From positions 495,381-559,380 of the forward strand of contig KV454016.1 in the NCBI GenBank assembly GCA_001661245.1: a stretch of DNA of 64,000 bases, in the 5' to 3' direction. Below are positions 30,541 to 64,000 of the stretch, piece by piece (the stretch's first letter is position 1; each line of letters starts with the position of its first letter). Source of the stretch: Pachysolen tannophilus NRRL Y-2460 (lineage: Eukaryota). A program made the translations under genes and the position numbers. The notes under the pieces are model-generated. The model made no database searches, was not told where the DNA came from, and was given only the letters and a program-made list of their open reading frames with translations.

Positions 30541-32679
30541 TTATTTAGCACCATACCTGTTAATTGATTTTCCGTCAGGAATGGTAAAGAAAACATAAGG
30601 TTTATCGTTATTACCAATAGCATCCAATCTAAAGTAACCTTTTCTTTCAAACTGAATGACATCACCAACCTTCATTTTTCTGATGTTCAAATCACCAAAG
30701 GCAGATGTGTGAAATTCAGTGTTTGGAGTAAGGAAATCTTCAAAATTATCACCTTCATCCAATTTGTCCTTTGTGATTAAGTGATCAAAGTCAACCAAAT
30801 CAAGTTTGACTTTATCAGGGGTATCAGCCAACCATGTTAATTTTTTGGAAGTTTTCTTGAAATCACCTTCTAGATTCAATCTTCCAGTAACTGACTTGAC
30901 AACATCACCTTCTTTTTCAATCTTTTCAACAATGGCATTACCCCAGTCCATAAGTGTAAGTTCTTCTCCTTCTTCTAATGCATCTGCATCTGCCTGTTCA
31001 AGAATAATATCTTTATAGTAAATTACGTCTTTCAAACCAAGATCCAGATTTTTCTTATGTTTAGGCTTTTGTTCAACAACTGGAGTAGTTGGTCCATCTA
31101 CTAAATGGAATTTAACAACATTTTTATCCTCAACAGCAACGTGTCTTGGAGCAATGGGATCAATAATTTTCTTATTAGTTGCCCAAATAACATTCCAATC
31201 AAGATTGATGATATTCTTTGAAGGACCTTGAGCAATGACAAAATTCCACAAGCCTTCAACAGACATACCACGTCTTCTAACTCCTCTAACAGTTGGAAAA
31301 CGAGGGTCATCCCAGTTACCGACGTAACCTTTATCGACAAACCATTGCAATTTTCTTTTAGATAAAAGGGTTCTGACAAAGTTGACTCTAGCAAAATCCC
31401 AAATATGGACTTTTCTTAAATGTAAAGCATCCAACATCCAATCGTATTGAGCATTACGGTCACGATATTCAATTGTTCTCAAAGCATGAGTAACACCTTC
31501 TAAAGAATCGACAATTGGGACACAGAAATCATAAGTTGGATACATCTTCCAGCTTGTTCCAGTTCTGTGATGTGGAGTTAGATTACACCTGTAAATGACA
31601 GGATCACGTAAAGTCTTATTTAAAGCTGTATAATCAATTTTGGCTCTAAGACAGTTTTTCAAACCTTCTTCAGTACCGTTCTTCATTTCTTGAGTGAAAA
31701 TTTTTAAATTCTCCTCAATTGATCTATCTCTTCTTTCTGATTTAAGGCCATCCATTCTTTCAGCTCTCATTTTTTCCAACGGAGTATCATCACAGTAAGC
31801 TTTTCCTTCTTTGATTAACTTAACTGCCAAGTCGTACATTTGCTCAAAGTAATCAGATGAATAGGTAATCCTATCACCTTTGATACCCAATAATTGTAAA
31901 TCTTCAAGAATCGAGTCCTGGAATTCGACATTTTCTTTGGAAGGATTAGTATCATCAAATCTTATAATCAATTTACCGTGGTACAAATCAGCAAAGTATT
32001 TGTTCAAGATAGCTGCTTTAGCATGTCCAATATGTAAATATCCAGAAGGTTCCGGAGGAAATCTAGTAACGACCTCACCATCTTTAGCATCTTGCAAATT
32101 GATGTCGAAGTTAGCCTTATGTGTCTTCTTTTCACCTGAAGCAGAACTAGCAGCTTTACGAATTTCAACAATAGATTTATTCATGAGTTCCACCATTCCA
32201 CCAAATCTTTTATCACTGTCCAAAAACAAGTACCATCTTGAAACATTGATATAAGCTGAAGATTTGATAACAGATCCCATAACAGGATTAGCTCTTAAAA
32301 CACCCCAGACAGCAATATCGGAAGCTGATACCTTGTGACCAACAATAAAAGACCTGAAGTTCAAGTGTGAGTCAAGTTTTTCTAATTCAACAGATAAAAG
32401 CTTAAAATCTTTAGTAGTCAACTTTGATGAAAATTCAATCCATTCAGATAAATTATCAGTAGAAATTTTTGATAATCCAACTAAATGATTGAAAACAGAG
32501 TTATTATCGGTAGCGATGACCTTGTCACCTTGGGAAAGTTTAACTTCTGGAGCTTTTTCATCTACAAATGAAACATTAATAGAAGTGTCAGATTTCTCTG
32601 TATTAATAAAAGCAGCAGCTATCAAACTAGCATAAGCTACAATCGGAGCTTTAGCAGCTAATACCAACGAAGTAGACAT
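30541..32679 (-). CDS. GUS1: Cytosolic glutamyl-tRNA synthetase
   Basis: GST-like N-domain, RFPPEPSGYLHIGH, LLSKR, QFERKGY; ATG at 32679. Confidence 0.96.
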   Translation of the reverse strand: MSTSLVLAAKAPIVAYASLIAAAFINTEKSDTSINVSFVDEKAPEVKLSQGDKVIATDNNSVFNHLVGLSKISTDNLSEWIEFSSKLTTKDFKLLSVELEKLDSHLNFRSFIVGHKVSASDIAVWGVLRANPVMGSVIKSSAYINVSRWYLFLDSDKRFGGMVELMNKSIVEIRKAASSASGEKKTHKANFDINLQDAKDGEVVTRFPPEPSGYLHIGHAKAAILNKYFADLYHGKLIIRFDDTNPSKENVEFQDSILEDLQLLGIKGDRITYSSDYFEQMYDLAVKLIKEGKAYCDDTPLEKMRAERMDGLKSERRDRSIEENLKIFTQEMKNGTEEGLKNCLRAKIDYTALNKTLRDPVIYRCNLTPHHRTGTSWKMYPTYDFCVPIVDSLEGVTHALRTIEYRDRNAQYDWMLDALHLRKVHIWDFARVNFVRTLLSKRKLQWFVDKGYVGNWDDPRFPTVRGVRRRGMSVEGLWNFVIAQGPSKNIINLDWNVIWATNKKIIDPIAPRHVAVEDKNVVKFHLVDGPTTPVVEQKPKHKKNLDLGLKDVIYYKDIILEQADADALEEGEELTLMDWGNAIVEKIEKEGDVVKSVTGRLNLEGDFKKTSKKLTWLADTPDKVKLDLVDFDHLITKDKLDEGDNFEDFLTPNTEFHTSAFGDLNIRKMKVGDVIQFERKGYFRLDAIGNNDKPYVFFTIPDGKSINRYGAK

Positions 32680-32831
32680 AATCAATGAATTAATTATCAA
32701 TAGCAATTAATTTAGAATTGAGTTGTTATTATATATTCTTTGCTTTACTTTAAAAACTTCACTTTTTTTGACGGAAGTTCAAAAAAGTGAAAATTTTGAA
32801 AAATTCTTGTGCGGCTCACACCGAAGAACAA

Positions 32832-32918
32832 AACGACAATGACAACGACAACGACGACGATGACGACAACGATGACGACAACGATGACGACAACGATGAC
32901 GACAACGATGATGATAAT
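32832..32918 (+). repeat. Intergenic GAC/AAC/GAT repeat with four perfect copies of GATGACGACAAC (32859-32906)
   Basis: Read directly from the sequence. Confidence 0.9.
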
Positions 32919-33029
32919 TACAAAAGATTTATATCAGTAAGTAATAATAATACAATTAGCATCTATAGAGACGTATAAAATATATAAAATATCAAAACAG
33001 AAAAAAGAAAAGTGTATAAGTAGACAGAC

Positions 33030-36000
33030 TTATTTTGAAAAAATTTCCATATATTTTTTCAATTCGTCGGAATATTTGGATAATTCCATCAATTCAGCTA
33101 GAATATTATTATCAACAAAAGGAGATATGCTTGCTGTACTGACGATATCATCTCTTGGGAATACGTTTGGCAATTTTAGTAATTTCATTAATTCCGGGTT
33201 TACCAGCTCATTACTACTCTCGTTAGCATCAGAATCTACCTTATTATTTTCAGAGATTTTGATAAAGTCAAGACTCTTGGAAACCAACAAATTCAAAATC
33301 TTGAGGCATCTATATGAGATTAAAGCCAATTCAGGAGAAGCAGGTTGATTGACGTTGACTAAAGCAATACCTATCTTGCTTAGTGTTGACCCAATTAGTT
33401 CTGACTTGGTCAACCAGCCTAAAGCTAAATTTTCTTCAAAATTTTCTGGATTTAGCATTTCCAACACCAATATACATGAAAGTAACGATTGGGATATAAC
33501 AATTTTTCTTTCCTCTAATACTGACAGTAAAGAATTCATTGTGTGTATAGGTAAAACAGACAACAAAAAGGAAAATAATTTTTTCAAAAAGATACCGCTT
33601 GAGGGATCTTTCCCGTTCAAATACAACTTTGATAACCTTAAAACTTCACCAATAGTTTCTTCCTCATTCAGTTCATTTACAATTGAGAAATTACCGGTTA
33701 TTACAGCTCTCAATAAACTTTTATTTGGTGGATCTCTAACCAAAATTTTGGTTAACAGATCAATTGAATAAGGTTGGTATTTCTGTAATGCAGGCCTGTA
33801 TTTCGGAATAAATAAATCATTACTTTCCAACTTTTCTAATTCCTCCTCAAGATTAGAATAATTTGTCTCAATTCCATCATCCAACTTACCGCTGAAAGAT
33901 AAAGTAAGCATTAGTATCAATAATGCTTCTTCAAATGACCTTAATTGCAATAGCAATGCAATGTTGGACAATAATATAGTAGAGTCTTTAATAAATGTCA
34001 ACACTTTTCTGGCAAAGATAAATTTCTTTGGGTAAGAAGCAATACAATAAAGCAATTTGAAAAAAAAATCTTTGAAAACTTCGTTAAATGCAATAACCTC
34101 ATGATTATTTCCAATAAAAGAAAGATTTCTTAAAATTATAGATACTGTCGATAATCTTTCAACTAACATTAATTGATGATTTACTGACGACCTCAACATT
34201 ACTGGAGCATCTGGTTTTTGAATTTCATCACGACATTGAATCAATAAATCTGAATACAACAGAATTCTAAAGCTTTCTGGCCTGTCGTTAACTGAATTTG
34301 TTGTTGCATTAGAATTAATCGTTGTGTTAGCAAATGTATCTGGTGTAATTGGCTCTGCTGAATTATCTTCAACATCACTGTCTTGATCTATAGAATTATC
34401 ATCAACATCAACTTCCTCACCAGTGAAAGAATCAATGTTAACAGTTACAGATTCTTTCCTCTTACTTGACTGATTGCGCTCATTATTCTCTTTGATAAAA
34501 CTATTAAAAACATCATCAATACGATCTTTACTAGAAATTAAATCAGCAATATTTTCCAGTTTCTGATACGACCCATCACCGTAAACTAACTCATTTAATA
34601 CATCAATACCCAACTGGCATAGACTATCTAATAATTCCGGACATTCTCTTAATAACAATATCAAATTATTATCTGAAGCAGTAACCAATAAAGTGTTTAA
34701 AGCATTATTAACCTGTGAATTACTGCTACTATTTAATGACATTGTTAGAGCTAGCAAATCAATATTACCTAATTCAGGAGCAAATAAGTAAAAAGGTTTA
34801 GTTGCATCTAAATTCTGTCCCAATGTCATCAAATTATTAATATCATAACCAGCAATGAATTCTAGAGCTCTCTGCGGTGGGGTATAATTTCGAATAACTG
34901 CAGGAATTTCCTCTTTGACACGAGGTCCTAAAGCATCACTAAAAGTTTCGCCATGAATACCAGATGCTGATTGTGGGGTACTTGCAGCAGAAAATGATTG
35001 CTGCTGCTGTTGTCTTGGTTGAGCACCTGATGTGGGAGGAACAAAACCTCCTATTCCAGAAATAGAAGCTTCTCTAGAATTAGAAGAAGCAGGGGAATCT
35101 ACTCTTTGCAAAGGTTGTTGTTGTTGATGTAATTGTTGGATCATCATTGGAGATGAGGTCAGTTGAGAAATAGAAGATGGTGAATTTTTGCTTTTGCTTT
35201 TTGGAAGATTCTTTGCTCTTCCTCTCTTTTTAGTTTGCGAAGCTTGCTGCTGCTGTTGCTGAAATTGTTGTGGCTGGAATTGTTGTTGTTGAAATTGCTG
35301 CTGTTGTGGAGCTCGAGGAATATTTTGCTGTTGCTGAGGCATCATTGGCTGCTGTTGTTGAAATTGTTGATGCGGTTGTTGTTGTGGTTGTTGTTGTTGT
35401 TGCAGTTGCAGTTGCTGTGGCGCTAAATGTGGCATAGCCGCTTTTGGAACTGGACTTTGTTGTTGTTGCAGTTGTTGTTGTTGTTGTTGTTGCTGCTGCT
35501 GCTGCTGCTGCGCTAAAAGCTGCTGCTGCATTTGTTTTTGTAGGTTAATTTTAATGTTTTGGACTTCACGTTGCCCATCAGGAGTTGAGGAATATTGTTC
35601 AAAAGGTAGTAAGTACTGAGCATAAACTGTAGCTATATCTCTTGCATAGTTTGGATTGCTTTCAATTGGTAGATTGAATTTTGATGCAATAAATCCCCAT
35701 TGATTATTTTTGGAAATATTATTTGTTCCTCCCATCTTATTGACTAACACATATAAAAAAAATAAATGAATTTTCCTTCCATCAATAACGGGATTTTGAT
35801 TCAATGGAGTTCCTCTACGTCTCATAAATTCTCGTAATGTTTTCATGAATAATTCTATCTGTAAATGGCTCATTTGTAGCTGCCTTCTTTGTTGTTGCAG
35901 CAGCTGCAGCTGTTGTAATTGAGGAGAAATTTTCTGTTGATCTTGTGCCAGCTGCTGTTGTTGCTGTTGCTGTTGCTGTTGTTGAGGTTGAGGCTGAGAT

Positions 36001-36601
36001 TGAGGTTGAGGAAGAGGAGGAACCATAGGACTTCCATTCGAAGAACCTTGGGAATTATTATTGTTCGCTTGCAAGTTTGCTTGTTGTTGCTGCATCTGCT
36101 GCATTCTTTGTTGTTGCAATTGCTGGAAAAGCTGTTGCTGCTGCGTTTGCATCTGGTTCCTATTATTATTGTTAGTGTTGCTATTGTTATTGTTACCGTA
36201 ATTAGGAGGACTTGCTACATTCTGCTGCTGTTGCTGTTGTTGTTGTTGTTGCTGCTGTTGCTGCTGGTGGTGTTGCAATATTTGGTTCTGTAAAAGTTGC
36301 TGCTGTTGCAATTTCTTGAATTGGTTCTGTTTCTGTTGTTGATCAATCATAAACTGCTGCTGTTGTTTTTGTCTCAAAGCAGCCATCATTGCACTTTTAT
36401 CCAAGAGGCTACCATTGAAATTGGCGTTATTTCCTGGAGGACCATTGTTACTGAATTGCCCAATATTATTATTATTATTATTATTGTTATTATTATTGAT
36501 ATCTGCAAAATTCAAAAACGAGGACATTTCAGTATCGTCCGTGTTCATATTACCATTGTTATTACTATTACCATTATTATTATTATTATTATTATTATCA
36601 A

Positions 36602-36651
<50 letters not shown>

Positions 36652-36704
36652 GTATTGGTATTATTATTACCAAACTGTTCATTCATCCAAAATTGGTCCG
36701 ACAT
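33030..36704 (-). CDS. SWI1: SWI/SNF subunit Swi1 (N/Q-rich N-terminus, ARID domain, ARM-like C-terminus)
   Basis: ARID motif IHLFFLYVLVNKMGG...W...YAQYLLPFE; APELGNIDL, ALNTLLVTAS, ILRNLSF. Confidence 0.88.
36464..36669. repeat. Coding (ATT/AAT)n microsatellites encoding Swi1 poly-Asn
   Basis: Long tta/att runs read directly. Confidence 0.9.
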
Positions 36705-37128
36705 TTTCAGGTTTATATCTTCAGCAACGAAGATAAAGATGACTAACAGCGGTTAAATATATTATCTTCCAATATATTTTCATATTATATTATATAATAT
36801 TATATATATTTCTGAATTTTGTCTATTTTTTTTTTTTTTTGACTTTTTTTTGATAATTATCGTCAAGCTCTTTTTTGAGACGAAATTACACGACAAAAAA
36901 CTTACGATTACTATTACTACAAACGATGGAACCAACAAGATGATTATGATGATGATAATGGAATGACAAAATGAAGCTTAAGGATATCTAATGATGGATG
37001 ATGGTATATAAAAGTTGAAAGGGGAGTAGAACAGATGATGAAAAAGAGAGAGAAAAAAAAAAAAAAGAAAAAAAGAGAAAGAAAAAAGAAAACGAAAAGA
37101 AATAAAAAAAGTAAAACCAAGCCTGTTG

Positions 37129-38241
37129 TTACTTCCAGAATTTAAACCATGGACGCGAATGAAGTTTTTTACTAACTCCTTTAAAGTGTTCCATTTCGCT
37201 CCAACAATCTCTTCCATATTCGCACCCAGCCATATTTATGACGAAATCTCTATCATGTTCACTATAGAAATATCTTGGATCTTCTGCGTATTCGTAGCAC
37301 GCTCCTGTTGGGAAAGAATTTATCAGTCTTAATGGTAAGAAAGCTGTTCTTTCTCTAACCCAACTTCCATTTGAGTATAAACATTCCAATGCGTCTTGTT
37401 CTTTGTGTTCCCATTGCATATGTCTTTGTTCGTATAATACAGGATCCCACCACGCGTCTAATAAACATTCTGTCCACAGAGATCTTCTTATGAAAAAAGA
37501 ACCAAGATTGAAACCACCACAATCTTGAGTCACTATAAGGTCAATTGGTTGTGTATAATCAACATATGGGATATCAATTTTTAAATTCAAAGGGTTAAAT
37601 TCTTCAAGAGATCTATAAGTTACATTATCCAAATGATTAAAAACATGATCTTCTAATGAAATTTGAGGTTCCATAATATATGTATGTAAATCTAACCACC
37701 AAAACCATTCTGCATTTGGGTATTGTCTCATTGTTTGTTTGATGATATCTACTTTTTCCCAACCTTCTCTCCATTCATGACTATATCTTCTTTTTAAAGT
37801 CATATCTTTTATTGTAAGTCCATATCCATGTTTTTCAGCATAATGCCTTTTATTTATAATTGATGATCTTTCAACTGACCATTCTTGAGCACCTTTCCAT
37901 TTCAAAACACCACCTCCTTCATTTGCTGCCAATATTATAACAACATTTGGATCTGTTATTGTAAATTTTGGAATATCAAAAGGTAAAGGTAATGATGTGA
38001 AATTTAAAACTAACATCAATAATAGTAATAACAGAGTAATTTTTTTATAATTATCTATAACATCTCTGACAAATTCTTTTAATGTCCTAGTTATATAATT
38101 CCCACCATTGATTGAGGTATATTCTTGGAAACTATTAACAGCAATATCATCATCATCATCACTTTTGAATTTTTTCTTTGTAGTTGATATAAACGGTAAT
38201 CTCCAACTCCTTAGCAGTCTACCACCACCAAAACCTAACAT
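37129..38241 (-). CDS. MNN10: Golgi alpha-1,6-mannosyltransferase Mnn10 (GT34)
   Basis: Type II TM anchor, VIILAANEGGGVLKWK, EWFWWLD, QDCGGFNLGSF, WEHKEQDALE. Confidence 0.92.
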   Translation of the reverse strand: MLGFGGGRLLRSWRLPFISTTKKKFKSDDDDDIAVNSFQEYTSINGGNYITRTLKEFVRDVIDNYKKITLLLLLLMLVLNFTSLPLPFDIPKFTITDPNVVIILAANEGGGVLKWKGAQEWSVERSSIINKRHYAEKHGYGLTIKDMTLKRRYSHEWREGWEKVDIIKQTMRQYPNAEWFWWLDLHTYIMEPQISLEDHVFNHLDNVTYRSLEEFNPLNLKIDIPYVDYTQPIDLIVTQDCGGFNLGSFFIRRSLWTECLLDAWWDPVLYEQRHMQWEHKEQDALECLYSNGSWVRERTAFLPLRLINSFPTGACYEYAEDPRYFYSEHDRDFVINMAGCEYGRDCWSEMEHFKGVSKKLHSRPWFKFWK

Positions 38242-38705
38242 ATTCCTCTTGTTTTATTCTATTCTATTCTATTTTAATGAGAAAAAAATATTTTTCTTTT
38301 AAGGTTCTTCCTCTATAATGATAAATGTGTTGAAATAAATTTTAAATATCAATCTCTATATTTTTTAACTTTGATTTTGTTTTTGTTAGTTTATAAAATG
38401 GAAAAATTGATTTCCACGTCTCTATTACCCTACAGCAAAATACAAGCACTAACAACAACAAAATCTAATAGTATTTTGCTAAAATAAAAGAAGAAGAAAG
38501 AAAAAAAAAGAAAGGTAAACCAAATAACTATGAATTAGTGTTTGTGCTTATTAATTTCGTCTTTAAAGAATTTTATAATTTGGTACGGTAATTGGTGCCT
38601 GGAATAAATTAATTGTAAATAGCAGTGTTGATGTCATATTAATTGAACACTTTGTTTTTTTGTCTTTTTGTATTTTTGTATTTTAAAGAAAGAAAGAAAA
38701 AAAAC

Positions 38706-38888
38706 TGTCACATCTTTGTGTCATATTATGTGTGTCACAAAGATGTGTCACAACAGTGACGCATTTTTTGATTTTTTTTTTTTTGTCACACCTGAGTGTC
38801 ACAAAAGTGTGACATAATTGTGTCACATTTGTGCCGCTCTTGTCACAGTGTCACAATACTAATGCGTCACTTACAGAAACGTCACGTG
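38706..38888. promoter_or_regulatory. Dense GTCAC/TGTCACA motif array with nested inverted repeats; includes an MSE/Sum1-like site (AGTGTCACAAAAG) and an E-box (GTCACGTG)
   Basis: 12 GTCAC/GTGAC copies in ~180 bp in the MNN10/kinase divergent spacer; regulatory role is inferred. Confidence 0.6.
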
Positions 38889-39424
38889 GTAGCATATTTC
38901 CTTATTTAGAAATTTGTGTACCACAAACACTTCTTTTTGAACGTCTTTCTGTTTTTTTTTTTGCTTTTTAGGTACACCACACCATAATAATATCTTCTTT
39001 TTTACAGTATACATAATATATAAAATTGTAATATAATAAATATATCAAGGTAAGAAGGTAGTAGTAGGTAAGGTAAGGTAAATTTAAAATAATCACAAGT
39101 TTTTTTTTTTTTTTTTTTTAATTAATTTCTTTCTTTTCTGGTTTAAATTTTGTTTGATTGAATATCATTGAGTTAGTCAGTGAGTTAGTGGTTGAGTGAG
39201 TGAGTGAGAGTGTGAGACAGAGAAAGTGTGTTATTTTGTTTTAATTTTTTTTTTTTTTTTAAAAAAATTTATTGACTCCTTCTTGTAAGCGTTTCATACT
39301 ATTTTCCTGTTAAAAAAAAAAATTAATTGAAAAAAAAAAAAAAATTTGGAAGGAAAGGAAAGGAGAAGGAAAAGGAAAAGGAAAAGGAAAAGAAGGGAAA
39401 AAAAAAGAAGAGGGTATATGAAAT

Positions 39425-47673: not shown

Positions 47674-49248
47674 ATGATGACAGAGAGAAACAAGGAAATG
47701 AAGGAGGTTGAAGTTGATAAGAAGAAGGTTGTGGAAACCATTGCACCTAAAAAGGATGAGAAGGAGACTGCAATGCTGGAACCGGAAAAAACAACAGATG
47801 AGTTGAAACTGACGAAAACACAAGAGTCTGATACAATTGATACGTCACGGCGTAAAAGAGGCCGAGAAGAAGATGAAAATGAAGATGAAAATGAAGGTGA
47901 AGAGAAAGAGAAAGATACGAAAAGAGAAGGCAAGGATGCATTGGATAGCGAGAAGACAAAACCAATTGATGCTTCAGAAGAAGATTCACGTACCAAGCGT
48001 CCAAGGACAAATGATTCTAGTTCTACTGAGATAAAAATTACGAAAATTACCAATGGTAATACTAAAGACTCATCAACAGAGGTGGAAAAAGCAACAAAGG
48101 ATGAAGAAGAAGATAAAGAAGAAATTAGAGAAGACAAGGATATATTGGTTAATGAGAAGACAAAACCAATTGATGCTTTAAAAGAAAATTCAAATTCCAA
48201 ATGTCCAAATACAAGTGATTCTAGTTCTATTGAGACAAAAGTTACTAATGGTGATACTAATCACTCGTTAAAGGAGCTGGAAAAAGAAACAAAAAAGGAT
48301 GATGAAAAAAATGAAAGTAAGGATATTTCTACCAATGGAACTAACAGTGCTTCTGTTAGTGCTTCTGAAGAGAAGCCAAAGTTTGTATTTGGTTCATCAA
48401 CACCTTTTGGATCAACACCTGCTTTTTCCATGTTTAACAAGAAAAATATTTTTGATTCATCTGTGTCTGATGGGAAAGTTAAGGAAGCAGAAACAGATTC
48501 ACTGTCGTCATCATCGTTTTTGTCAGCAGGAGGAGCGTCCGCAGAAGCAGGTGCTAAAAATTCAGTTTTTGGTTCTGTATCACCATCGGCTATTAAAGGA
48601 ACATCTCTGTTTGGTGCCAATTCGAAATTTGGAAATGCATTTCAAGCAGCAATAAACAAAAAATCGATATTTGATAAGGAGGTTAAAACGGAGTCCAATG
48701 AAAAGGAAGCAGAGACGGGACAAGAACAGAAAAAAGATGAAGATGAAGAAGAAGATGAAGGTGCCGACAATGATAAAGATGAAGATGAAGACAATAACAA
48801 AGATAAATCAACTAAATCAACTTTATACCAAAAGGTACATTTAGAAAAAAAACAAATTAGTACTGGGGAAGAAGAAGACGAATCTCTTTTCTCAACAAAA
48901 CTGAAATTGTACTCTTTGGATTTGACAAACGTTCTGGAAGGATGGAAAGAAAGAGGTATTGGTATACTAAGGGTTAACAAGTTGAAAAATACTACTGAAA
49001 ACATCAATTACAAGGCAAGAATTATCATGAGAGCAGACGTAATTTTGAAAGTTATACTAAATGTACCAATTACTAAAAAATTTGAAATTTTTGAAGGAAT
49101 GGAAAGTTCTTTAGCAAGTGAAAAATTCATTAGAATATCATCTATAGATGAAAATAAGAAACCTGTCCAATATGCCATTAAAACCGCTAATGCTAACAAT
49201 ACGAAGGCATTATATAATTCCATCAAAAGTTTGATTCCAAAAGATTAG
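47674..49248 (+). CDS. YRB2: Ran-binding domain protein Yrb2 (charged N-terminus, FG motifs, RanBD)
   Basis: FVFG/PFG/VFG/LFG/KFG motifs, TGEEEDE, WKERGIG, RIIMR; adjacent to EFM4 as in S. cerevisiae. Confidence 0.85.
   Translation: MMTERNKEMKEVEVDKKKVVETIAPKKDEKETAMLEPEKTTDELKLTKTQESDTIDTSRRKRGREEDENEDENEGEEKEKDTKREGKDALDSEKTKPIDASEEDSRTKRPRTNDSSSTEIKITKITNGNTKDSSTEVEKATKDEEEDKEEIREDKDILVNEKTKPIDALKENSNSKCPNTSDSSSIETKVTNGDTNHSLKELEKETKKDDEKNESKDISTNGTNSASVSASEEKPKFVFGSSTPFGSTPAFSMFNKKNIFDSSVSDGKVKEAETDSLSSSSFLSAGGASAEAGAKNSVFGSVSPSAIKGTSLFGANSKFGNAFQAAINKKSIFDKEVKTESNEKEAETGQEQKKDEDEEEDEGADNDKDEDEDNNKDKSTKSTLYQKVHLEKKQISTGEEEDESLFSTKLKLYSLDLTNVLEGWKERGIGILRVNKLKNTTENINYKARIIMRADVILKVILNVPITKKFEIFEGMESSLASEKFIRISSIDENKKPVQYAIKTANANNTKALYNSIKSLIPKD
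47921..48327 (+). repeat. Diverged intragenic tandem duplication with 204-bp period in YRB2
   Basis: GAGAAGACAAAACCAATTGATGCTT is exact at 47950 and 48154; GATTCTAGTTCTA and later blocks also recur; outer limits approximate. Confidence 0.85.
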
Positions 49249-50457: not shown

Positions 50458-53058
<2,601 letters not shown>

Positions 53059-53358: not shown

Positions 53359-53412
53359 GTATATATATATATAGATATATAGATATATAGATATATGTAT
53401 ATATATATATAC
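53359..53412. repeat. (TA)n / TAGATATA microsatellite
   Basis: Read directly from the sequence. Confidence 0.8.
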
Positions 53413-55014: not shown

Positions 55015-55090
55015 CAGAAGTACCAGAAGTACCAGAAGTACCGTTCTACTGTACCGTGCTACTGCACTTCGGCTGCCGGAAGTACCAGAA
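55015..55090 (+). repeat. Compound minisatellite: (CAGAAGTAC)x3, (GTACCGT[T/G]CTACT)x2, then another GAAGTACCAGAA
   Basis: Read directly from the sequence. Confidence 0.8.
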
Positions 55091-55406
55091 ACGAGGGGGA
55101 GGGGAAAATAAAATAAAAGAAATCGCGATATAATAATAATAAGAAGAAGAAGAGGAAGCAGTAGGAAAGAAAATAAATATTTCGGAACTATCTATACTGG
55201 ATGATGCTAATATTCTATGAATTTTAATTCTATTTCCTATTCCTATTCCTTTTTTTTATTTTAATTATAATTTCTCTTTGCACGCTCTTACCGTTCTTTT
55301 CTCGGTTTTGTTTTAATTTGACCTACTAAGCTTCTTTCTTTTGCCTCTTTTATTGATTTAAAAATCTAGAATTAATTTTTAGTGCGAAAAGCACGCGAAA
55401 AAAAAC

Positions 55407-55445
<39 letters not shown>

Positions 55446-55985
55446 TGGTAAAAAGAAAGAAAAAAAAAAAGAAAACGAGAATTTCTATTTTCTATTTCCA
55501 TCAGCGGTTAATATATATAAAACTATAATTTACTATTAATATTTGTATTTATCATTCTTTTAAAATAAATAAAATATACATCATTAATTTTTAATAATCA
55601 AACCAATAGATTCATTCGTTTTTGAAAATAATATACCCTGTGTTTGCTGAATTCATTCATTTTTTTTTCCTATTTTTTTTCCCTTCTTTTTTGTTTTATA
55701 ATTTTTCTTTTTCTTTGTTGAAAAATTAGATAAATTAAAAAGAAAATTTGTTATTATCTATTAATCTATTAATCTGGTGTTTTTGGGTTTTATTTTATTC
55801 GGGTTGTTACAGTTGAGCCTTTTATAATTTTCTTGTTTGTTTTTCTTTTGACTTTTTTTTTTTCAATAGTTTAACTTGTTATTGGATTTATATTATGTGC
55901 CTATAATTAAGTTTGGTGTTTTACAAAGAGAAATAAATATATTACAACAAAAATCAAAAAATACAAAAAAAAACGAAAAAGAAGA

Positions 55986-57050
55986 ATGCGTCCTATAATT
56001 TATTGTGAAGTTAAGATAATACTAATTGCGGCGATAGCGTCTTTTTTAATTGTTAGAGTTAATGGAGAAACATCATTGGGTTGTTTTTCTTCTATAAGTT
56101 CATCAGCTGTATCAAAGGGTTCATATACATATCAATCTTCATTATATTGTTCTGAAGAATGTTCATCATATAGTTATTTTGCATTGTTCAACGGAAGTTA
56201 TTGTTATTGTTTAAGTTCAAGTCCCGATAGTTCGGATACTTCAAATGATTGTGATGTAAGTTGTGTTGGATACCCAGATGAGACCTGTGGTGGAACTGAT
56301 AGTTATGACGTTTATTCAACGGGTTCGAGTAGTTCGTCTTCTGATGATTCATCAAGTTCTTCCACATCGCTGTCTTCAAGTTCTTCATCTACATCAAGTA
56401 CATCAACCTCATCTACATCATCATCATCTTCTTCTTCTTCATCAAGTTCAAGTTCAAGTTCAAGTTCGAGTTCAAGTTCAAGTACAACACTGGCACTGGC
56501 ACTGGCTTCTTCCTCATCATCACAATCTTCATCAACAATAACACTGGCTACAACTTCAGCTACTTCAGATTCAAATTATGTATTAACAACACAAACAGGA
56601 GATGGAGCTTCTTCAGTGGTCACCATAACAGAAACCCCATCATCAACTTCGTCGCTGGATAGTTCTTCTAAATCGAGTTCAAGTTCTTCATCATCAGGCA
56701 CAAGCAAAGGTGCAATAATAGGTGGTGCTGTTGGTGGTGTTGTTGGTGGAGCAATATTAGTTGGTCTCTTCATTTTCTTTATATTATGGAGAAGACGTAG
56801 TACTGTTGATGAAGATGACTTTTCTCAGGAAGACAAGATGTTTGTTGATGATGCTATGTACGATGAAGCGATAAAAAGAAATAAGCCTGTGAATCCTTTT
56901 GAAAGTTCTGCAGATTTTAATATGAATATGGATCAACGGTTAAACCCAATAGAGTTGGGAAGGAGAAGGTTAAGTGAGGGATCATTGGCAGACAATGCGG
57001 ATTATAGCAGGAAAATATTAAGAGTAGCAAACCCTGATGATAATATCTGA
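55986..57050 (+). CDS. WSC-family cell wall integrity sensor (signal peptide, Cys-rich WSC domain, Ser/Thr linker, TM, RVANPD tail)
   Basis: Eight-Cys WSC pattern, GAIIGGAVGGVVG TM, NPF motif, LRVANPD; paralog (Wsc1/2/3) not resolved. Confidence 0.9.
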   Translation: MRPIIYCEVKIILIAAIASFLIVRVNGETSLGCFSSISSSAVSKGSYTYQSSLYCSEECSSYSYFALFNGSYCYCLSSSPDSSDTSNDCDVSCVGYPDETCGGTDSYDVYSTGSSSSSSDDSSSSSTSLSSSSSSTSSTSTSSTSSSSSSSSSSSSSSSSSSSSSSTTLALALASSSSSQSSSTITLATTSATSDSNYVLTTQTGDGASSVVTITETPSSTSSLDSSSKSSSSSSSSGTSKGAIIGGAVGGVVGGAILVGLFIFFILWRRRSTVDEDDFSQEDKMFVDDAMYDEAIKRNKPVNPFESSADFNMNMDQRLNPIELGRRRLSEGSLADNADYSRKILRVANPDDNI

Positions 57051-57830
57051 ACAACGAAAAAGAAGAAAATCAAAGAAAAAAAGAAAAAAAAAAGAAAAAT
57101 TGAAATAAATATATATATATATATATATAAGGTATATAACAGAAAAGTAAAAGGTATAAATTTAAAAAAAAAATAATAGTTTATTATATTATTTTTCTTG
57201 TTCTGTTTTAAGGAAAAAAAAAAATAATTAAAGATAAAATAAAAAAAACACAACCCATTTTTGTAAATTATAGAAACAATTGTTGTGTTGTGTTGTGTTG
57301 TTTTCTTAGTTTTTCATTTTGTACTTACTTATTATTTATCGATGATGTTATTTTTCATTTTTTTTTACTTTTTCAGTTTTTAAAAAAATTGTTTTTTAAA
57401 ATCCGTTTCCGTTGCCTATTTAGGAAAACTGTAGAATAACTTCCTCATTCGGTACTTTTTTTATAACCTTTCCGTTTTTGGCCATTTTTATTTTGTTTTT
57501 TGTTTTTTTAAAAATGCTTTTTAATATTGCTTTTAAAAACGCATACGATTTTGTATTTAATATACAATTGTCGTAAGATAGCATACAATTCTATATATAT
57601 TATTATTATTATTATTATTATTAATATTAATATTATTATTTATCAAATATTATTGCTATTATTAAAGAATTATTTTTCAATCATTATAGCTATTTATTTA
57701 TTTATTGTTTTTAATTATTATTCTTATTAATAGTTTGATAATTTTGAATGGTTAATAGCTCGAGTAATTTGAATTACTTACTTGAATACAATTTTATTAA
57801 TAATATTTTATTAAATATATATATTTAATT

Positions 57831-59567
57831 ATGTCTCATGCAATTACGGTTCCGGAAGACGAAAAAGAATTTTATACACAATTATCAGAAATTAGAAATT
57901 ATCTTTCTATTTTGAAAAAAGATCATAAAAATTTTTTAAAATCTTCTGTTATTTCAGAAATTTATAATAAAGTTATAAGAATTGTTAAAAAATTGGATAA
58001 TCAAAGACTTTCAAAATTTCCAACAGAAACTGTTAGACAACCACCTCAACCGAATAGTTTAGATTATCTTATAGATGATATTTTCCAATTATTATCATTA
58101 TGTTTTATGGCTGTTGGTTTGACAAAGACAGCTCCAGCAACTTATGCTTCATTATCAACGGTTCAAAGATTATTGGAACATTTGGATGAAAGTGGTGTTT
58201 ATACAAATTTAGAACTTAATCCTATTCGTGAAAGGTTACAAGAAATTAGAAATATTATTAATATGGATTATGCAGAATTGGAAGATACAGAACAAGATTT
58301 ACAAGGTGTAAGACATGAAGATAATGGATTTGATGATGATGAAGTATTTGTAGCTCAACAACAAAAAGATGGAACAGAAATTGTATTGGCTAAAAAAGAT
58401 GAAAATAAATTATTAAGAAATAAATTAACTAAATGTGAAAGAAAACTTGATCTGTTAGTTAATAAAATTAATTCAATCCCAGAAAATTTACAACATATTT
58501 TAACTGAATTAATTACAATTAGAAGAACTTTAATGAATTTAATTACAAGAGCAGAAAATTTTGATCCTAAAGATTTAGAAAATTTAAGAAAAGAATTATC
58601 TAAAATTGAAAATTCAAAAGAATTGATTGATTATATTAGTAGTAGTACTTCTGAAACTTCTGAAGGGGGTTCAACAAAAAATCAAGTTTTAATTAATGGA
58701 TTATTAGATGATTGTCATAATTTAATAAGTGATTTATTAGCAAATAATGTTGAAAAAGTTGATGCTTCTTTAAAACCATTATATAATCAACTAATAGAAT
58801 TAAAGACAAATTTAGAAAATTTATTTGTTACTTGGCGTTGGACTTTAAGAGCAACTGATTTATTTTCATATCAAAAAACACTTCAAGATATTGATAATCG
58901 TAGGAAAAATGGATTTTTCGTTAATCCAGAAGGTGAATGTCCTGCAAAAGGTCAAGATATCTTGCTTTATTTACTTCGAAGATGTTATGCAATCATTTAT
59001 AAATTATTGGAAAGTTCAGAACCTGTTTCTGAAGCCCTTCAACCAATTCATAATCAATTATCTACTGTGAGAAGATGTCTCTTGGATGTAAAACGTATGG
59101 GTGGTATATCATCAATTAGAGAATTATATCCATATCAGATGAAATTGGCTAGTGTTGATAATTTAAGAGAAGATGGGAAATTTATGGTTGATGAACAAAT
59201 CCCTGAAGGCCAAGGAACTTTAAATGCATTATTAGCTGAATGTTTTGATATTGTACATGAGTTGAAAATAGAATATTATGAAAATGAAGAAAATAAAAAA
59301 GGTGAAGATGAGGATGATATTGCCGCTGAAGATGACAACTATGTGATAGAAACTACAAAATCTGGATCTCTGGATCGTCAAAATGACGATGATGATGACG
59401 ACGATGACGAAAACGATGCTGTAAATGACGTCGAAGGTGACGGCGATGGCGATGGAAACTATTACAGGGACTTTACGGACGACGGTTATGACTCTAACTT
59501 ACCTAGCTACGCTGCTAGTGTTAATGAAAGTGAGATTCCTACTGATGTAGAAAGATCAAAAAAATAA
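57831..59567 (+). CDS. Conserved fungal helical protein, DUF2408 / YPL260W (Cub1)-like
   Basis: APATYASLSTVQRLLEHL, RWTLRATDL, SSEPVSEALQPIHNQL, RELYPYQMKL; family recalled from memory. Confidence 0.75.
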   Translation: MSHAITVPEDEKEFYTQLSEIRNYLSILKKDHKNFLKSSVISEIYNKVIRIVKKLDNQRLSKFPTETVRQPPQPNSLDYLIDDIFQLLSLCFMAVGLTKTAPATYASLSTVQRLLEHLDESGVYTNLELNPIRERLQEIRNIINMDYAELEDTEQDLQGVRHEDNGFDDDEVFVAQQQKDGTEIVLAKKDENKLLRNKLTKCERKLDLLVNKINSIPENLQHILTELITIRRTLMNLITRAENFDPKDLENLRKELSKIENSKELIDYISSSTSETSEGGSTKNQVLINGLLDDCHNLISDLLANNVEKVDASLKPLYNQLIELKTNLENLFVTWRWTLRATDLFSYQKTLQDIDNRRKNGFFVNPEGECPAKGQDILLYLLRRCYAIIYKLLESSEPVSEALQPIHNQLSTVRRCLLDVKRMGGISSIRELYPYQMKLASVDNLREDGKFMVDEQIPEGQGTLNALLAECFDIVHELKIEYYENEENKKGEDEDDIAAEDDNYVIETTKSGSLDRQNDDDDDDDDENDAVNDVEGDGDGDGNYYRDFTDDGYDSNLPSYAASVNESEIPTDVERSKK

Positions 59568-60319
59568 CCAAAAAAAAAAAAAAAAAAAAAAAAAAACTGC
59601 AGCTAATAAAAAATTTAATAATATTCAACAATTAATTTTTTTCTTTTATTCTTTTATTCTTTTATTTTACAATTTTGTTATTTGAGATGGAACTTCAATT
59701 ATTTTTTTTCTTTTTCTTCTTTTTTTCTTTTGGTAATGTTTATTTGAAGTAGAGATATGTATCTGGTTTGTGTGATTTGTGATTTATTTCCCTCCTTTTT
59801 TTTTAAAAAAAAAAAAATACTTTTTTCATTTAATTGTTTTGCATTGTTTTTATGTCCATTATGATTATGATTTCTTTTTTGTTTGTTTTAAGATTAACAT
59901 ACAGAATATTTTATATATGACGATTTTATTGTAGTTGTAGTCTGTCTGTCTAGTCAATAGTTGAAGCCACTAATGTACACGGCAGCCGCACAACTCCTAC
60001 TAATTAAGACATAAATATATATGTATATATATATATGTCAAGATAAGGAAGCGGAAACCCCCCGAAATCGCCACCTAAACTCTATATTATATCTTGAAAT
60101 ACACGGTTTCAATAGATAGAAGAAAAATCATGAAAGAATTTGAATCAGAAAACTTGTATTTTTTAGTATGATAAATAAATGATTATCTTTGTTTCTTCAC
60201 ATGCATTTGTATATATATATGTATGCATGCATAATTCTTTTTTTCCATTGCCTACCTTTTAAATTTGTCGGTTTTAAAGAATTGTTCACAAAAATTTTGC
60301 CGATAATCTAGATGGCTTA

Positions 60320-60326
60320 TTACTAA
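60320..60326 (+). promoter_or_regulatory. Possible Yap1-type response element TTACTAA upstream of the ABCC transporter
   Basis: Single motif ~490 bp upstream of ATG; AT-rich 7-mers arise easily by chance. Confidence 0.2.
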
Positions 60327-60810
60327 TAAAACCGTTGTAGTTGATCCTTTGATCCTCCTCCTACTGATTATTAGAGCTAAAATGTTTAAAAAAAAAAGTA
60401 GACTACACATAAAAGAGGAAGGCAAATAAATGAGGGTCGCCGCGTCCATGAGTTCATATTGAAGTTTTTCCAACCTAAATAACTATTGTTGGTGAAAACC
60501 TACGGCTTTCTAAAAATCCTGGAAATCATCTTATAATGATTAATAATAAGAGAACGATATTATAACTAATGAGGCTCAGATTTATCTTCAAGCGAATTTT
60601 CTTATCGTTAAAAGTTAAAGTTGTAAGTTTAACGTGAATAATACCGCATTTTAAAATTTCCCTTTTAGGCCCAGAAAGATTTCCAGGACATAAAACTAAA
60701 TACAATTGGAGATAAGAAGTCTTGAATTAAATTTACTTGTTGATATTTTATTTATTTTAAAGAAATAGAACTTGCTAATTTTTTTTTTTTTTTTTTTATA
60801 GACCATCAGG

Positions 60811-63800
60811 ATGCAGTCCATACTAAAGAGTGTACTATCTGGGGATGGTGATATTGAAGTATCATGGCTTCAGGATTCCAGGGCTTCATTTAACAACTCT
60901 TGTGCATCGATTTGGACACCGTTGGCTTCACCAGTTGAGAACTCTATTAACCCATGTTTTATTGGTTTGGTACTATTAGGATTAACACTTGTATTCAACC
61001 TAATAGTGATATGTCAGTTATTTCAAAAATTGGTTTCTAAGAAATATGGTTCTTTTTTGAAATTAAAGAGTTGTGGAATAAATCACTGGATCAGAATAAA
61101 TTTGGTAGTATTAGCAAGTTGTTTATATTTGATACTTTCTTTTGAAATTTTCCAAAATGTTGAAAATTTTAAAGATGTTCGGTTTTTGGGGACTTTGGTA
61201 ACAGGATTATCAATAATGTTTTTGTATTTGCCCTTACATACCATAGAAACTTCAAGATCAATTATTGCTAGTGGCTCTTTACTATATTTTTGGCCTTCTT
61301 GCTTTATTATTAACTTGATTATTGTCATTCAAGAATTTTGTAATGGTTATAGTTTTATTAATACAACTGACCAAGCTCTTGTAAAGACGATTGAACTACT
61401 TTTGTTGATTGTTAATATTCTGGTAATCATTTTAGAAGATTTTTACTATTCTTCAACAAGAGAATTGATTGAATATTACATGTTAAATGAGTTGGATATA
61501 CATACTCCAAATGCTATTTCTAGGATTACATTCACTTATATGGACCATTTGATTAAACATGGTTATAAGACAAAAAAAGTGACCGAGGATGATTTACCTG
61601 ATCCTCCAACATTCATCACTTCCCGACCATCATTTCTGAAGTTGAATAAATCATGGAATAATCAGAAATTGAAAAATCCTAAAAATCCTTCTTTAACCAT
61701 GGTTTTAGTTTCTTGCTTTGGTGTTCCAATTTTTTTCACTTTTGTTTTAGAATTGATACAAAACATTTTAAGTTTTGCTGAACCTCAACTTTTGAAATTA
61801 TTCATTGAATTTTTCAATGCAAAGGATAAACCTTTAATCATTGGTTTTTTCATCAGTGTGACAATGTTTGTTGTTTCAGTATTGGATACAATCATTTTCA
61901 ATGTCTTTTTCCTCAAATTATTGATGACGTCGTTATCTGCTAAATCTGGTTTAATGAGATTAATATACGATAAGGCTTTGCTTTTATCTCCAGAAGCCAA
62001 GAAAGAAAGAACTACAGGTGATATTGTGAACTTATTATCTGTGGATGTTGGTATAATTCAAACAATGCTTGAAGATATGCAATTTTTTGTGATTGCTCCA
62101 ATTAAATTTATTTTATGTTTAATCTCAATTTATTATTTATTAGGAAATGCTGTCTGGGGAGGTGTTTTAGCATTATTCATCATAATGCCTATAAACACTT
62201 ACTTAACCAATAAAATACGTATATATGAAACGCTACAAATGGATTTCAGAGATAAAAGAACAGGAATTGTGAATGAGATTTTATCTTCGATGAAAAGTAT
62301 CAAATTGTATGCTTGGGAGAAACCAATGTTGAAAAAATTAAATGATGTTAGAAATGGTCAGGAATTAAAGAATTTGAAGAAAATAAGCATTTTAAATGCA
62401 TTGATGCAGTTTACTTGGCATAGTATTACACTCTTGGTTAGTTGTTCCACTTTTCTAATATATGTCAAGGTTTTGAAAAAACCATTGACCCCAGATGTTG
62501 CTTTCCCAGCATTATCTTTATTTAGCTTGTTAAAAGATCCAATTTATGCATTACCAGCTTGTATTAAGCAGTTCATTGAATTTCGTATATCTTTGGGTAG
62601 AGTCTCGAGCTATTTAACTGCAGAAGAAATTAACGATGAAACAGTGAAGAAGTTATCAAAAGTTGTTCATTTAGGTGATCAGAGCATCACAATTTCAAAT
62701 GCTACATTTTTGTGGAACAATGTGAAAACTGATGACGGAGGTGAAGAACAAGATTTTTCTTTAAACAGTGTTGCTTTGAAAAACATTGAATATGATGCTA
62801 AAAAGGGTGAGCTTTCTTGTATTGTTGGTAAGGTCGGAGCTGGAAAGTCTACTTTTTTGAAATCTTTATTAGGAGAACTACCAATGGTACATGGTTCTGA
62901 TAAGTTTAAACCACCAATTCTAGAAGTTCATGGATCTATTGCTTATTGTCCTCAGGTAGCATGGATAATGAATGCTTCTATTAGGGAGAATATTTTATTT
63001 GGCCATAAATTTGAAGAAGATTTTTATGAATTAGCATTAGATGCATGTGATTTGAAGGAAGATTTAAAATCTTTACCAGATGGTGACGAAACAATGGTTG
63101 GTGAAAAGGGAATTGCGCTTTCTGGAGGACAAAAGGCAAGAATATCATTGTGCCGTGCCTTATATTCAAGAGCAGATATTTATATCTTGGATGATATCTT
63201 ATCTGCTGTTGATGCCCACGTAGGAGCAAAGATCACAAGAAAAGTACTAAGTAAAGATGGTTTACTAGCTTCCAAAACGAGAATTCTAGCGACTAACTCT
63301 GTTACTGTATTAAGTGGATCCGATAATATTGTATTGTTAGAAGGTGGTGAAATTATTGAAAGAGGTAGCTATCAGGAAGTTGTTGGAAATTCTGGTAGCA
63401 AATTATCTGGATTAATTAAAGAGTATGGTGCCAATGAGCAAGAGAAAATAAATTTACCTGAAAAGGAAAGTGATTTTTCAGTTGGCTCCAAAACTACATC
63501 GACAGATGGGTCTGAAGTAATTGCGGTTGATGAAATCGACGAAACTGATGATATTGAAATGTTAGCTGACAATTTAGGAACTCATCCGTTTAACTCAGGA
63601 AACCCCAATTCTATTGGTGGCTCACCTTTGGAAAGAATTGCAACTCATCAAACATTAAGGAGGGCTAGTGTAGTTACTTTATCAAAAGAAGTATCTCAAA
63701 AAAATAATAAAAAGAATATCATTACTGCTCAGAAGGAAGAGACAGCAGCAGCTGGGAAAGTCAAATTGGCAGTGTACATGTCATATGCAAAAGCATGCAA

Positions 63801-64000
63801 TATTGCTGGTGTTATTTGTTATCTCTCGATATTGTTAATAACTGGCTTTTCATCAATTTTAGAAAGCTTTTGGTTAAAATATTGGGCTGAAAATAATAGT
63901 CAAACTGGGGAAAACTCTAATAGTACATTTTTCCTTAGTATTTACCTGCTGTTAGGTATTACGACGGGTGTATTAACTGCTATCCACACTGCTATTATGT
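60811..64000 (+). CDS. ABCC/MRP vacuolar-type transporter (Bpt1/Ycf1/Mlt1-like), 3' truncated by the window
   Basis: Not in the ORF track. ATG at 60811; NPCF in TMD0, IKLYAWE, Walker A GKVGAGKS, LSGGQKARI, ILDDILSAVDAHVG, linker LRRAS. Confidence 0.9.
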   Translation, partial: MQSILKSVLSGDGDIEVSWLQDSRASFNNSCASIWTPLASPVENSINPCFIGLVLLGLTLVFNLIVICQLFQKLVSKKYGSFLKLKSCGINHWIRINLVVLASCLYLILSFEIFQNVENFKDVRFLGTLVTGLSIMFLYLPLHTIETSRSIIASGSLLYFWPSCFIINLIIVIQEFCNGYSFINTTDQALVKTIELLLLIVNILVIILEDFYYSSTRELIEYYMLNELDIHTPNAISRITFTYMDHLIKHGYKTKKVTEDDLPDPPTFITSRPSFLKLNKSWNNQKLKNPKNPSLTMVLVSCFGVPIFFTFVLELIQNILSFAEPQLLKLFIEFFNAKDKPLIIGFFISVTMFVVSVLDTIIFNVFFLKLLMTSLSAKSGLMRLIYDKALLLSPEAKKERTTGDIVNLLSVDVGIIQTMLEDMQFFVIAPIKFILCLISIYYLLGNAVWGGVLALFIIMPINTYLTNKIRIYETLQMDFRDKRTGIVNEILSSMKSIKLYAWEKPMLKKLNDVRNGQELKNLKKISILNALMQFTWHSITLLVSCSTFLIYVKVLKKPLTPDVAFPALSLFSLLKDPIYALPACIKQFIEFRISLGRVSSYLTAEEINDETVKKLSKVVHLGDQSITISNATFLWNNVKTDDGGEEQDFSLNSVALKNIEYDAKKGELSCIVGKVGAGKSTFLKSLLGELPMVHGSDKFKPPILEVHGSIAYCPQVAWIMNASIRENILFGHKFEEDFYELALDACDLKEDLKSLPDGDETMVGEKGIALSGGQKARISLCRALYSRADIYILDDILSAVDAHVGAKITRKVLSKDGLLASKTRILATNSVTVLSGSDNIVLLEGGEIIERGSYQEVVGNSGSKLSGLIKEYGANEQEKINLPEKESDFSVGSKTTSTDGSEVIAVDEIDETDDIEMLADNLGTHPFNSGNPNSIGGSPLERIATHQTLRRASVVTLSKEVSQKNNKKNIITAQKEETAAAGKVKLAVYMSYAKACNIAGVICYLSILLITGFSSILESFWLKYWAENNSQTGENSNSTFFLSIYLLLGITTGVLTAIHTAIM

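Follow-up and report, generated by a model that had tools for sequence, protein, structure and literature searches.

The analysed window, a 64-kb stretch of DNA, very probably comes from a member of the CUG-Ala clade of budding yeasts, in which nuclear CUG codons are read as alanine. This clade corresponds to the order Alaninales with the family Pachysolenaceae (Pachysolen, Nakazawaea, and Peterozyma), for which translation is described by NCBI table 26. Judged from the sequence, the usage of CTG in the predicted genes is unlike that of a leucine codon, and Ala is the residue that fits best. The first-pass annotation had already favoured Ala as the probable reading of CUG, and this reading is supported by alignment column scores, the position of the query in phylogenetic trees, and the public protein translations according to table 26. 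Its caveat that the reassignment is known for this clade holds as well: the CUG-Ala reassignment seen here is already described, and the window contains nothing beyond the published feature.

In the 26 open reading frames (ORFs) of at least 150 amino acids in this window of an AT-rich genome (G + C content approximately 30%), 91 in-frame CTG codons were counted among 15,899 codons (5.7 per 1000), and 23 of these ORFs contained one or more. Close values have been published for Pachysolen tannophilus, both in the frequency of CTG and in the proportion of genes that carry it: the available part of the source gives 16,824 CUG codons in 5288 genes, with 80% of the genes affected (PMC4937558). The initial impression that CTG is scarce in conserved domains was borne out by counting: the best Pfam stretches contained 15 of the 91 CTG codons (16%), compared to 48% of the other Leu codons (682/1421; Fisher p = 1.6e-9), 42% of the Ala codons (306/720; p = 7e-7 against CTG), and 34% of the Ser codons (490/1439). 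The residues neighbouring CTG were the most hydrophilic of all codon classes (p = 3.6e-6 versus Leu) and differed in hydropathy also from the contexts of Ser and Ala codons, partly because approximately 11 CTG codons lie within poly-Q tracts (CTG is one step away from CAG). Neighbour hydropathy is useful in speaking against Leu but does not separate Ser from Ala. The window stretch is present in five sequencing runs, among which no RNA run is listed.

All ten CTG codons named in the first-pass annotation were recovered in frame and at the given coordinates in the ORF codon listing, and the contexts K[X]KLY, RY[X]GE, IY[X][X]LG, and KN[X]DLG (X, residue encoded by CTG) were all seen around them. 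Together with further sites that were compared with homologs, they are located in the following genes:

47674-49248, plus strand: Yrb2-like RanBD protein, CTG at residue 410 (48901..48903, K[X]KLY) and a second CTG at 48934 (in-frame codon listing)
60811-63999, plus strand: ABCC/MRP transporter continuing past the window end, adjacent CTG codons at residues 1046 and 1047 (63946..63951, IY[X][X]LG)
50458-53028, minus strand: Arg5,6, CTG at residue 778 (50695..50697, RY[X]GE)
30541-32679, minus strand: Gus1 glutamyl-tRNA synthetase, CTG at residue 545 (31045..31047, KN[X]DLG)
55986-57050, plus strand: WSC-domain protein, six CTG codons in a Ser/Thr-rich linker (56370, 56490, 56496, 56502, 56544, 56655)
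27242-30433, plus strand: Rad1/XPF, CTG at residue 1048 in the C-terminal HhH region (30383..30385)
33030-36704, minus strand: Swi1-like ARID protein, CTG at residue 983 (33756..33758; alignment of six homologs)
8096-11674, plus strand: FIG4, CTG at residue 140 in the Sac domain (8513..8515)
14963-17113, minus strand: Ppm2/Tyw4, CTG at residue 383 (15965..15967; alignment of 120 homologs)
21951-23126, minus strand: Mvd1, CTG at residue 142 (22701..22703, LPQS[X]SE)
12858-14642, plus strand: Ilv3, CTG at residue 353 (13914..13916; homolog comparison)

The column corresponding to Yrb2 residue 410 was occupied by A in seven of ten aligned RanBDs, as the first-pass annotation gives for this site, by V in two and C in one, and by L or S in none (human RanBP2 and Xenopus Nup358, A, V, A, A each; Saccharomyces cerevisiae Yrb2, 3wyf, A; RanBP3, C). 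With regard to the motif Y(A/G)ALG, likewise given there for MRP transporters, 150 ABCC representatives had A55 G40 F16 L9 V7 M5 S5 at position 1046 and A44 L27 G22 V14 I12 S8 at position 1047. The equivalent of Rad1/XPF residue 1048 is A in human XPF and V in FAAP24. The Swi1 column 983 contained M, C, A, S, G, and A between conserved flanks in the six homologs that were the only matches of a search dominated by low-complexity words. The few conserved CTG columns (RanBD, ABCC, XPF, and Swi1) are thus occupied by Ala or further small residues in the homologs.

The equivalents of Arg5,6 residue 778 were A, G, K, and E in bacterial and plant reductases, the PDB containing no fungal ones, and those of Gus1 residue 545 were A in 7wrs, K in 7wai, and P in GlnRS of E. 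coli. Mvd1 residue 142 corresponded to T in the S. cerevisiae structure 1fi4 and to P in both 6xr5 and the Arabidopsis protein, and Ilv3 residue 353 to Y and H. In the alignments of 120 homologs each, the FIG4 column 140 was composed of K34 S19 D17 E15 T9 A9 G7 Q3, with L absent, and the Ppm2 column 383 of P51 A19 H19 G15 S6 L4. For the protein with CTG sites 255 and 306 and a GT34 (Mnn10-like) domain, a PDB search with this domain returned no matches. The CTG sites left out of the PDB comparison fall within unconserved segments. In the WSC linker, a tandem CTGGCA/CTGGCA/CTGGCT holds three CTG codons and reads TTAAAAAASS according to table 26; this context does not discriminate between Ser and Ala.

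A Codetta-like test was applied to 2186 aligned sites in three deep alignments (Ppm2, FIG4, and ABCC), with codons judged if at least five usable sites were available. The standard amino acid was recovered for all of these codons with CTG as the sole exception. The CTG scores (in nats, n = 10) were -0.9 for A, -4.8 for L, -6.8 for G, -6.9 for I, -8.0 for V, -8.9 for T, and -9.0 for S. Ten random sites with other Leu codons had a Leu score of 10.8 +/- 3.6, placing CTG four standard deviations below the expectation for Leu codons (P(<= -4.8) = 1e-4), and in this respect CTG columns differed from the columns of the remaining Leu codons. Within these alignments, other rare codons had normal scores (CTA, n = 15, L +17.3; GCG, n = 6, A +6.7; TCG, n = 11, S +9.3; CCG, n = 5, P +13.4). 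The Ala score of CTG was non-positive and far lower than the value for ordinary Ala codons (13.9 +/- 4.1 per ten sites; P = 6e-4), so that the preference for Ala is carried by approximately six sites. A second, shallow set of ten CTG sites yielded BLOSUM62 sums of +2.5 for A, -2.2 for S, and about -19.7 for L, and none of its sites was Leu-like. Ala was therefore the best-fitting residue in both independent site sets. The tabulation of CTG columns against homologs that the first-pass annotation had proposed could be carried out for the 20 of 91 CTG sites with usable homolog columns, and it placed neither Leu nor Ser on top.

Phylogenetic placement, also proposed earlier, was performed with two single-gene trees, which were calculated from the sequences of a quick search in which named Alaninales and Ascoideales were absent, and which positioned the query beside the Pichiales and outside the Serinales. 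In the FIG4 tree, the query and one relative (SH-aLRT 99) were sister to Komagataella, Kuraishia, Ogataea, Pichia, and Brettanomyces, and this grouping of the query with the Pichiales was located inside a clade of 18 sequences (support 99). In the Ppm2 tree, the query fell outside a CUG-Ser1 clade of eight sequences (100) and grouped with the Pichiaceae (84). According to the available part of PMC5951914, a deep branch sister to the Pichiales (Leu2 clade) and outside the Serinales is the position of the Ala clade, and the placement of the query in these gene trees matches it. Counting L at Ala-conserved columns as a sign of CTG = Ala in the nearest relatives (P0009, P0129, and P0130) gave no signal, and the columns were too few. 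Three ABCC representatives carry five to seven L across 22 Ser-conserved columns; from this pattern, they are probably mistranslated proteins of CUG-Ser yeasts.

Exact look-ups in NCBI, UniRef, and nr matched the table 26 translation (CTG = Ala) letter for letter for five of ten CTG-containing ORFs, namely Mvd1, Gus1, Met13, Arg5,6, and Ilv3. The same look-up found none of six table 1 translations (Arg5,6, Gus1, and Mvd1 among them) and none of three table 12 translations (Gus1 and Mvd1 among them). The table 26 translations of Yrb2, the WSC-domain protein, FIG4, Ppm2, and Rad1 had no exact match in these collections, which is attributed to differing gene models as a candidate cause; of three CTG-free controls, Rnr2 and Trs23 were matched exactly and the third ORF was not. 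The presence of table 26 translations in the databases indicates that the public annotation of this genome already uses CUG = Ala. Such a match reflects the assumption of the annotators and not decoding by the ribosome.

The literature on the Ala clade suggests a route by which this code may have arisen. The ancestral tRNA-Leu(CAG) would have been lost, and a duplicated tRNA-Ala would then have gained the anticodon CAG while G3:U70, A73, and a short variable arm, which serve as identity elements for AlaRS, were retained; in consequence, each CTG in these ORFs would be decoded as Ala. ARAGORN detected no tRNA in the 64-kb window, and Rfam a single one, an intron-containing tRNA-Arg(ACG) on the minus strand (17295-17388) that is irrelevant to CUG. 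Former Leu-CTG codons may have been purged and new CTG codons may have arisen mainly at tolerant, weakly conserved positions; this purge and re-entry would lead to the observed scarcity of CTG in domains. For cytoskeletal and motor proteins, the available part of PMC4937558 states that CUG occurs mainly at conserved alanine positions, whereas CTG in the window is mostly found at poorly conserved ones. Since the gene sets differ, this contrast is no contradiction. No difference from the Pachysolen code was seen, and the window shares with it Ala as the best residue at CTG, a lineage beside the Pichiales, and public proteins that equal the table 26 translation.

The observations that CTG is scarcer in domains than even Ala codons are, and that its Ala score lies well under the one for ordinary Ala codons, could also be explained by mixed decoding, in which Ala predominates and Leu or another residue is inserted less often, in kind like the dual decoding reported for Ascoidea asiatica, since an ambiguous codon is expected to shun critical positions. 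An equal pattern is, however, expected of a recently reassigned codon that re-enters at tolerant sites only, and in the available part of PMC4937558, mass spectrometry of P. tannophilus found Ala at 97.2% of fully supported CUG positions, which makes mixed decoding very unlikely. An unfinished reassignment, in which an ambiguity that is residual or depends on conditions (Ala and some Leu) could underlie both the strong domain exclusion and the few CTG columns with I, L, and V, is regarded as very unlikely.

Decoding of CUG as serine, as in the Serinales (table 12) or the Ascoideales, would agree with the enrichment of CTG in Ser/Thr-rich linkers, including the WSC linker with its six CTG codons, and with a Ser fraction among CTG neighbours (0.146) that is nearer to Ser contexts (0.155) than to Ala contexts (0.092). 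The T at the Mvd1 site in S. cerevisiae and the S (19) and T (9) among the 120 homologs in the FIG4 column 140 would fit as well. This reading is nevertheless highly improbable: Ser had the poorest deep-set score among the three candidates and was outscored by Ala in the shallow set as well, was absent from the ten RanBDs, and accounted for only 5/150 and 8/150 residues in the two ABCC columns, and table 26 translations were publicly present where those of table 12 were not. The window resembles the CUG-Ser1 code (table 12, Serinales, e.g., Candida albicans) in that CTG is withdrawn from Leu and purged from conserved Leu positions, but the residue here is Ala, the CTG columns are not dominated by Ser, and the lineage falls outside the Ser1 clade and the Serinales. 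With the CUG-Ser2 code and with Ascoidea asiatica (Ascoideales), in which CUG is decoded as both Ser and Leu, it has in common an AT-rich genome and the avoidance of CTG at conserved positions; it differs by the poor fit of Ser at conserved CTG columns and by the grouping of the query with the Pichiales in the FIG4 tree, which lacked Ascoideales sequences.

The standard code, with CTG as a rare Leu codon at weakly constrained places of an AT-rich genome, would be consistent with the low G + C content and with a few hydrophobic CTG columns compatible with Leu (Ppm2 580, I45 L30 V27; ABCC 204, L23 V21 A14 I13 S12; FIG4 937, L33), but it is extremely improbable given the normal scores of other rare codons, the low Leu score and Pfam occupancy of CTG, the lack of Leu-like sites in the shallow set, and the absence of table 1 translations from the public records.

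With CUG read as Ala, the standard code mistranslates 91 positions, which are spread over 23 of the 26 ORFs, and table 26 is needed for downstream annotation. The window also illustrates a reassigned CTG codon that resides mostly at unconstrained positions, in agreement with the published model of codon reassignment driven by tRNA loss.

The window is AT-rich, compact budding-yeast DNA with a G + C content of 27–35% (4-kb bins) and contains 26 ORFs of at least 150 amino acids, nearly all of which matched ordinary yeast families. These include FIG4, Ilv3, Ppm2/Tyw4, Mvd1, Met13, Rad1, Gus1, Rnr2, and Arg5,6, as well as a Swi1-like ARID protein, a Yrb2-like RanBD protein, a WSC protein, and an ABCC transporter. 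CTG occurs in frame 91 times among the 15,899 codons of the 26 ORFs (5.7 per 1000), alongside 26 CTC, 73 CTA, 154 CTT, 419 TTG, and 749 TTA codons. CTG is present in 23 of the 26 ORFs, compared with the 80% of genes (16,824 CUG positions in 5288 genes) given for P. tannophilus in PMC4937558. All CTG codons named in the first-pass annotation, which had proposed that CTG is probably read as Ala and not as Leu, proved to be in frame, with positions and contexts borne out by the codon listing. The following features are referred to below:

1681–3996 (-), RRM protein, 10 CTG
8096–11674 (+), FIG4
14963–17113 (-), Ppm2/Tyw4
33030–36704 (-), Swi1-like ARID protein, 14 CTG
55986–57050 (+), WSC protein
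56488–56505 (+), tandem hexamer CTGGCA CTGGCA CTGGCT within the Ser-rich WSC linker
60811–63999 (+), ABCC transporter, running off the window

The Swi1-like and RRM proteins account for a quarter of all CTG codons, many of them in poly-Q tracts; approximately 11 CTG codons lie inside such tracts, one substitution from CAG, and are uninformative on decoding. In the WSC gene, a GCN Ala codon directly follows four of the six CTG codons.

Homologue columns were examined for 20 of the 91 CTG sites. Deep alignments of Ppm2 (120 homologues), FIG4 (120 homologues), and ABCC (150 representatives) were used to score each codon by amino-acid log-odds summed over aligned columns (2186 columns, occupancy at least 70%). 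For every codon with at least five sites except CTG, the standard residue came out on top with a score clearly above zero, including the rare codons CTA (n = 15, Leu +17.3), GCG (n = 6, Ala +6.7), TCG (n = 11, Ser +9.3), and CCG (n = 5, Pro +13.4). In agreement with the first-pass annotation, Ala ranked top at the ten CTG sites of this deep set (-0.9), followed by Leu (-4.8), Gly (-6.8), Ile (-6.9), Val (-8.0), Thr (-8.9), and Ser (-9.0). Ten randomly drawn sites of other Leu codons had a Leu score of 10.8 ± 3.6, which was -4.8 or lower in 1e-4 of 20,000 draws. The usage of CTG is unlike that of leucine. However, the Ala score of CTG stayed below zero and was much lower than ordinary Ala codons reach (13.9 ± 4.1, P = 6e-4), so that approximately six sites carry the case for Ala.

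The rarity of CTG in conserved domains, noted in the first-pass annotation as an impression, held on counting: 15 of 91 CTG codons (16%) fell within the best Pfam stretches, compared with 682 of 1421 other Leu codons (48%; Fisher p = 1.6e-9), 306 of 720 Ala codons (42%; p = 7e-7), and 490 of 1439 Ser codons (34%; p = 3e-4). The residues flanking CTG were the most hydrophilic among the codon classes. Their difference from the neighbors of other Leu codons (p = 3.6e-6) persisted on removal of Q-rich contexts (p = 0.001) and in comparison with CTT, CTC, and CTA alone (p = 0.009). The neighbors of CTG are rich in Ser and Thr (Ser fraction 0.146, compared with 0.155 for Ser codons and 0.092 for Ala codons), which resembles Ser-codon contexts and points away from Ala, but this stems largely from the WSC linker with its six CTG codons, among them the three of a single tandem CTGGCA repeat.

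Residues found in homologues at CTG-encoded positions (X)
RanBD K[X]KLY: A in 7 of 10 aligned domains, V 2, C 1; S. cerevisiae Yrb2 has A
ABCC 1046 (150 representatives): A55 G40 F16 L9 V7 M5 S5
ABCC 1047 (150 representatives): A44 L27 G22 V14 I12 S8
Rad1 1048: A in human XPF, V in FAAP24
Swi1 983: M, C, A, S, G, A
Ppm2 383 (120 homologues): P51 A19 H19 G15 S6 L4
Gus1 545: A, K, P
Arg5,6 778: A, G, K, E
FIG4 140 (120 homologues; variable, polar): K34 S19 D17 E15 T9 A9 G7, no L
Mvd1 142 (variable, polar): T, P, P
Ilv3 353 (variable, polar): Y, H
Yrb2 421 (variable, polar): K
Ppm2 580 (hydrophobic): I45 L30 V27
ABCC 204 (hydrophobic): L23 V21 A14 I13 S12, 39 gaps
FIG4 937 (hydrophobic): L33

The last three columns would suit Leu and lie in poorly aligned stretches. 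At the ten sites with few homologues (shallow set, BLOSUM62), Ala scored +2.5, Ser -2.2, and Leu approximately -19.7. Ala is thus the best residue in both site sets. The choice between Ala and Ser turns on the conserved columns, which Ser does not fit. Three ABCC representatives (P0273, P0281, P0299) carry Leu at 5–7 of 22 Ser-conserved columns. They probably stem from CUG-Ser yeasts whose genes were called under the standard code, and would hence be mistranslated in the public collection.

ORF translations under NCBI tables 1, 12, and 26 (CTG as Leu, Ser, and Ala, respectively) were looked up as exact sequences in NCBI/UniRef/nr. The CTG-free Rnr2 and Trs23 had exact matches in NCBI/UniRef; a third CTG-free ORF had none in the same look-up. 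For Mvd1, Gus1, and Met13 the table 26 translation was found and those of tables 1 and 12 were absent; Arg5,6 and Ilv3 matched exactly under table 26 in a second batch. No exact match was obtained for the table 26 translations of Yrb2, WSC, FIG4, Ppm2, and Rad1, presumably because the public gene models differ from the first-ATG, intron-free ORFs used here, or for the table 1 translations of Yrb2, Arg5,6, and WSC. The overall tally of exact matches was 5 of 10 ORFs under table 26, 0 of 6 under table 1, and 0 of 3 under table 12. The public annotation of this genome thus already uses CTG = Ala; such matches reflect the annotators' assumption and are not independent proof of decoding, but they settle the question of novelty. 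Together with the ranking of Ala in both site sets, these results support the proposed reading of CUG as Ala in the window, and neither as Leu nor as Ser.

The best named relatives of FIG4 were Wickerhamomyces, Kuraishia, Ogataea, Brettanomyces, and Komagataella (65–72% identity), and those of Ppm2 Candida boidinii, Komagataella, and Wickerhamomyces (41–43%, compared with 35–36% for Saccharomycetaceae). In the FIG4 tree (41 rows), the query and one relative (SH-aLRT 99) were sister to Komagataella, Kuraishia, Ogataea, Pichia, and Brettanomyces within an 18-row clade (99) separate from Phaffomycetales and Saccharomycetales. The Ppm2 tree (30 rows) placed the query with the Pichiaceae (84) and outside a clade of eight CUG-Ser1 species (100). 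PMC5951914 gives this placement for the CUG-Ala clade. Neither tree included a named row of Ascoideales or of Alaninales, the order that now comprises the CUG-Ala clade with Pachysolen, Nakazawaea, and Peterozyma according to PMC11182611 and the NCBI lineage. The genome's own Ppm2 and FIG4 were not among the homologue matches, the best of which were 53% (Ppm2) and 70% (FIG4) identical, although the collection does contain other proteins from this genome. FIG4 (+) and PPM2/TYW4 (-) are neighbors in the window (8096–17113), and locus tags of the matches suggest the same arrangement in Eremothecium (ADL195C/AaceriADL194W), Torulaspora globosa (HG537_0E00350/0E00360), and Wickerhamomyces mucosus (WICMUC_002466/002467), which would be conserved synteny across orders.

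In P. tannophilus, AlaRS charges a CAG-anticodon tRNA-Ala derivative in which G3:U70 and A73 are retained, and mass spectrometry gave Ala at 97.2% of fully supported CUG positions (PMC4937558). The CTG codons of the window would be decoded by a tRNA of this kind. The sole tRNA in the window (17295–17388, -; Rfam 48.8 bits, missed by ARAGORN) has, on manual reading, the anticodon loop CTACGA followed by an insertion of approximately 21 nt, and would be an intron-containing tRNA-Arg(ACG). Since the reassignment is the one already known and applied in public records, it is ordinary for the clade; its use beyond that lies in the correct annotation of the ORFs.
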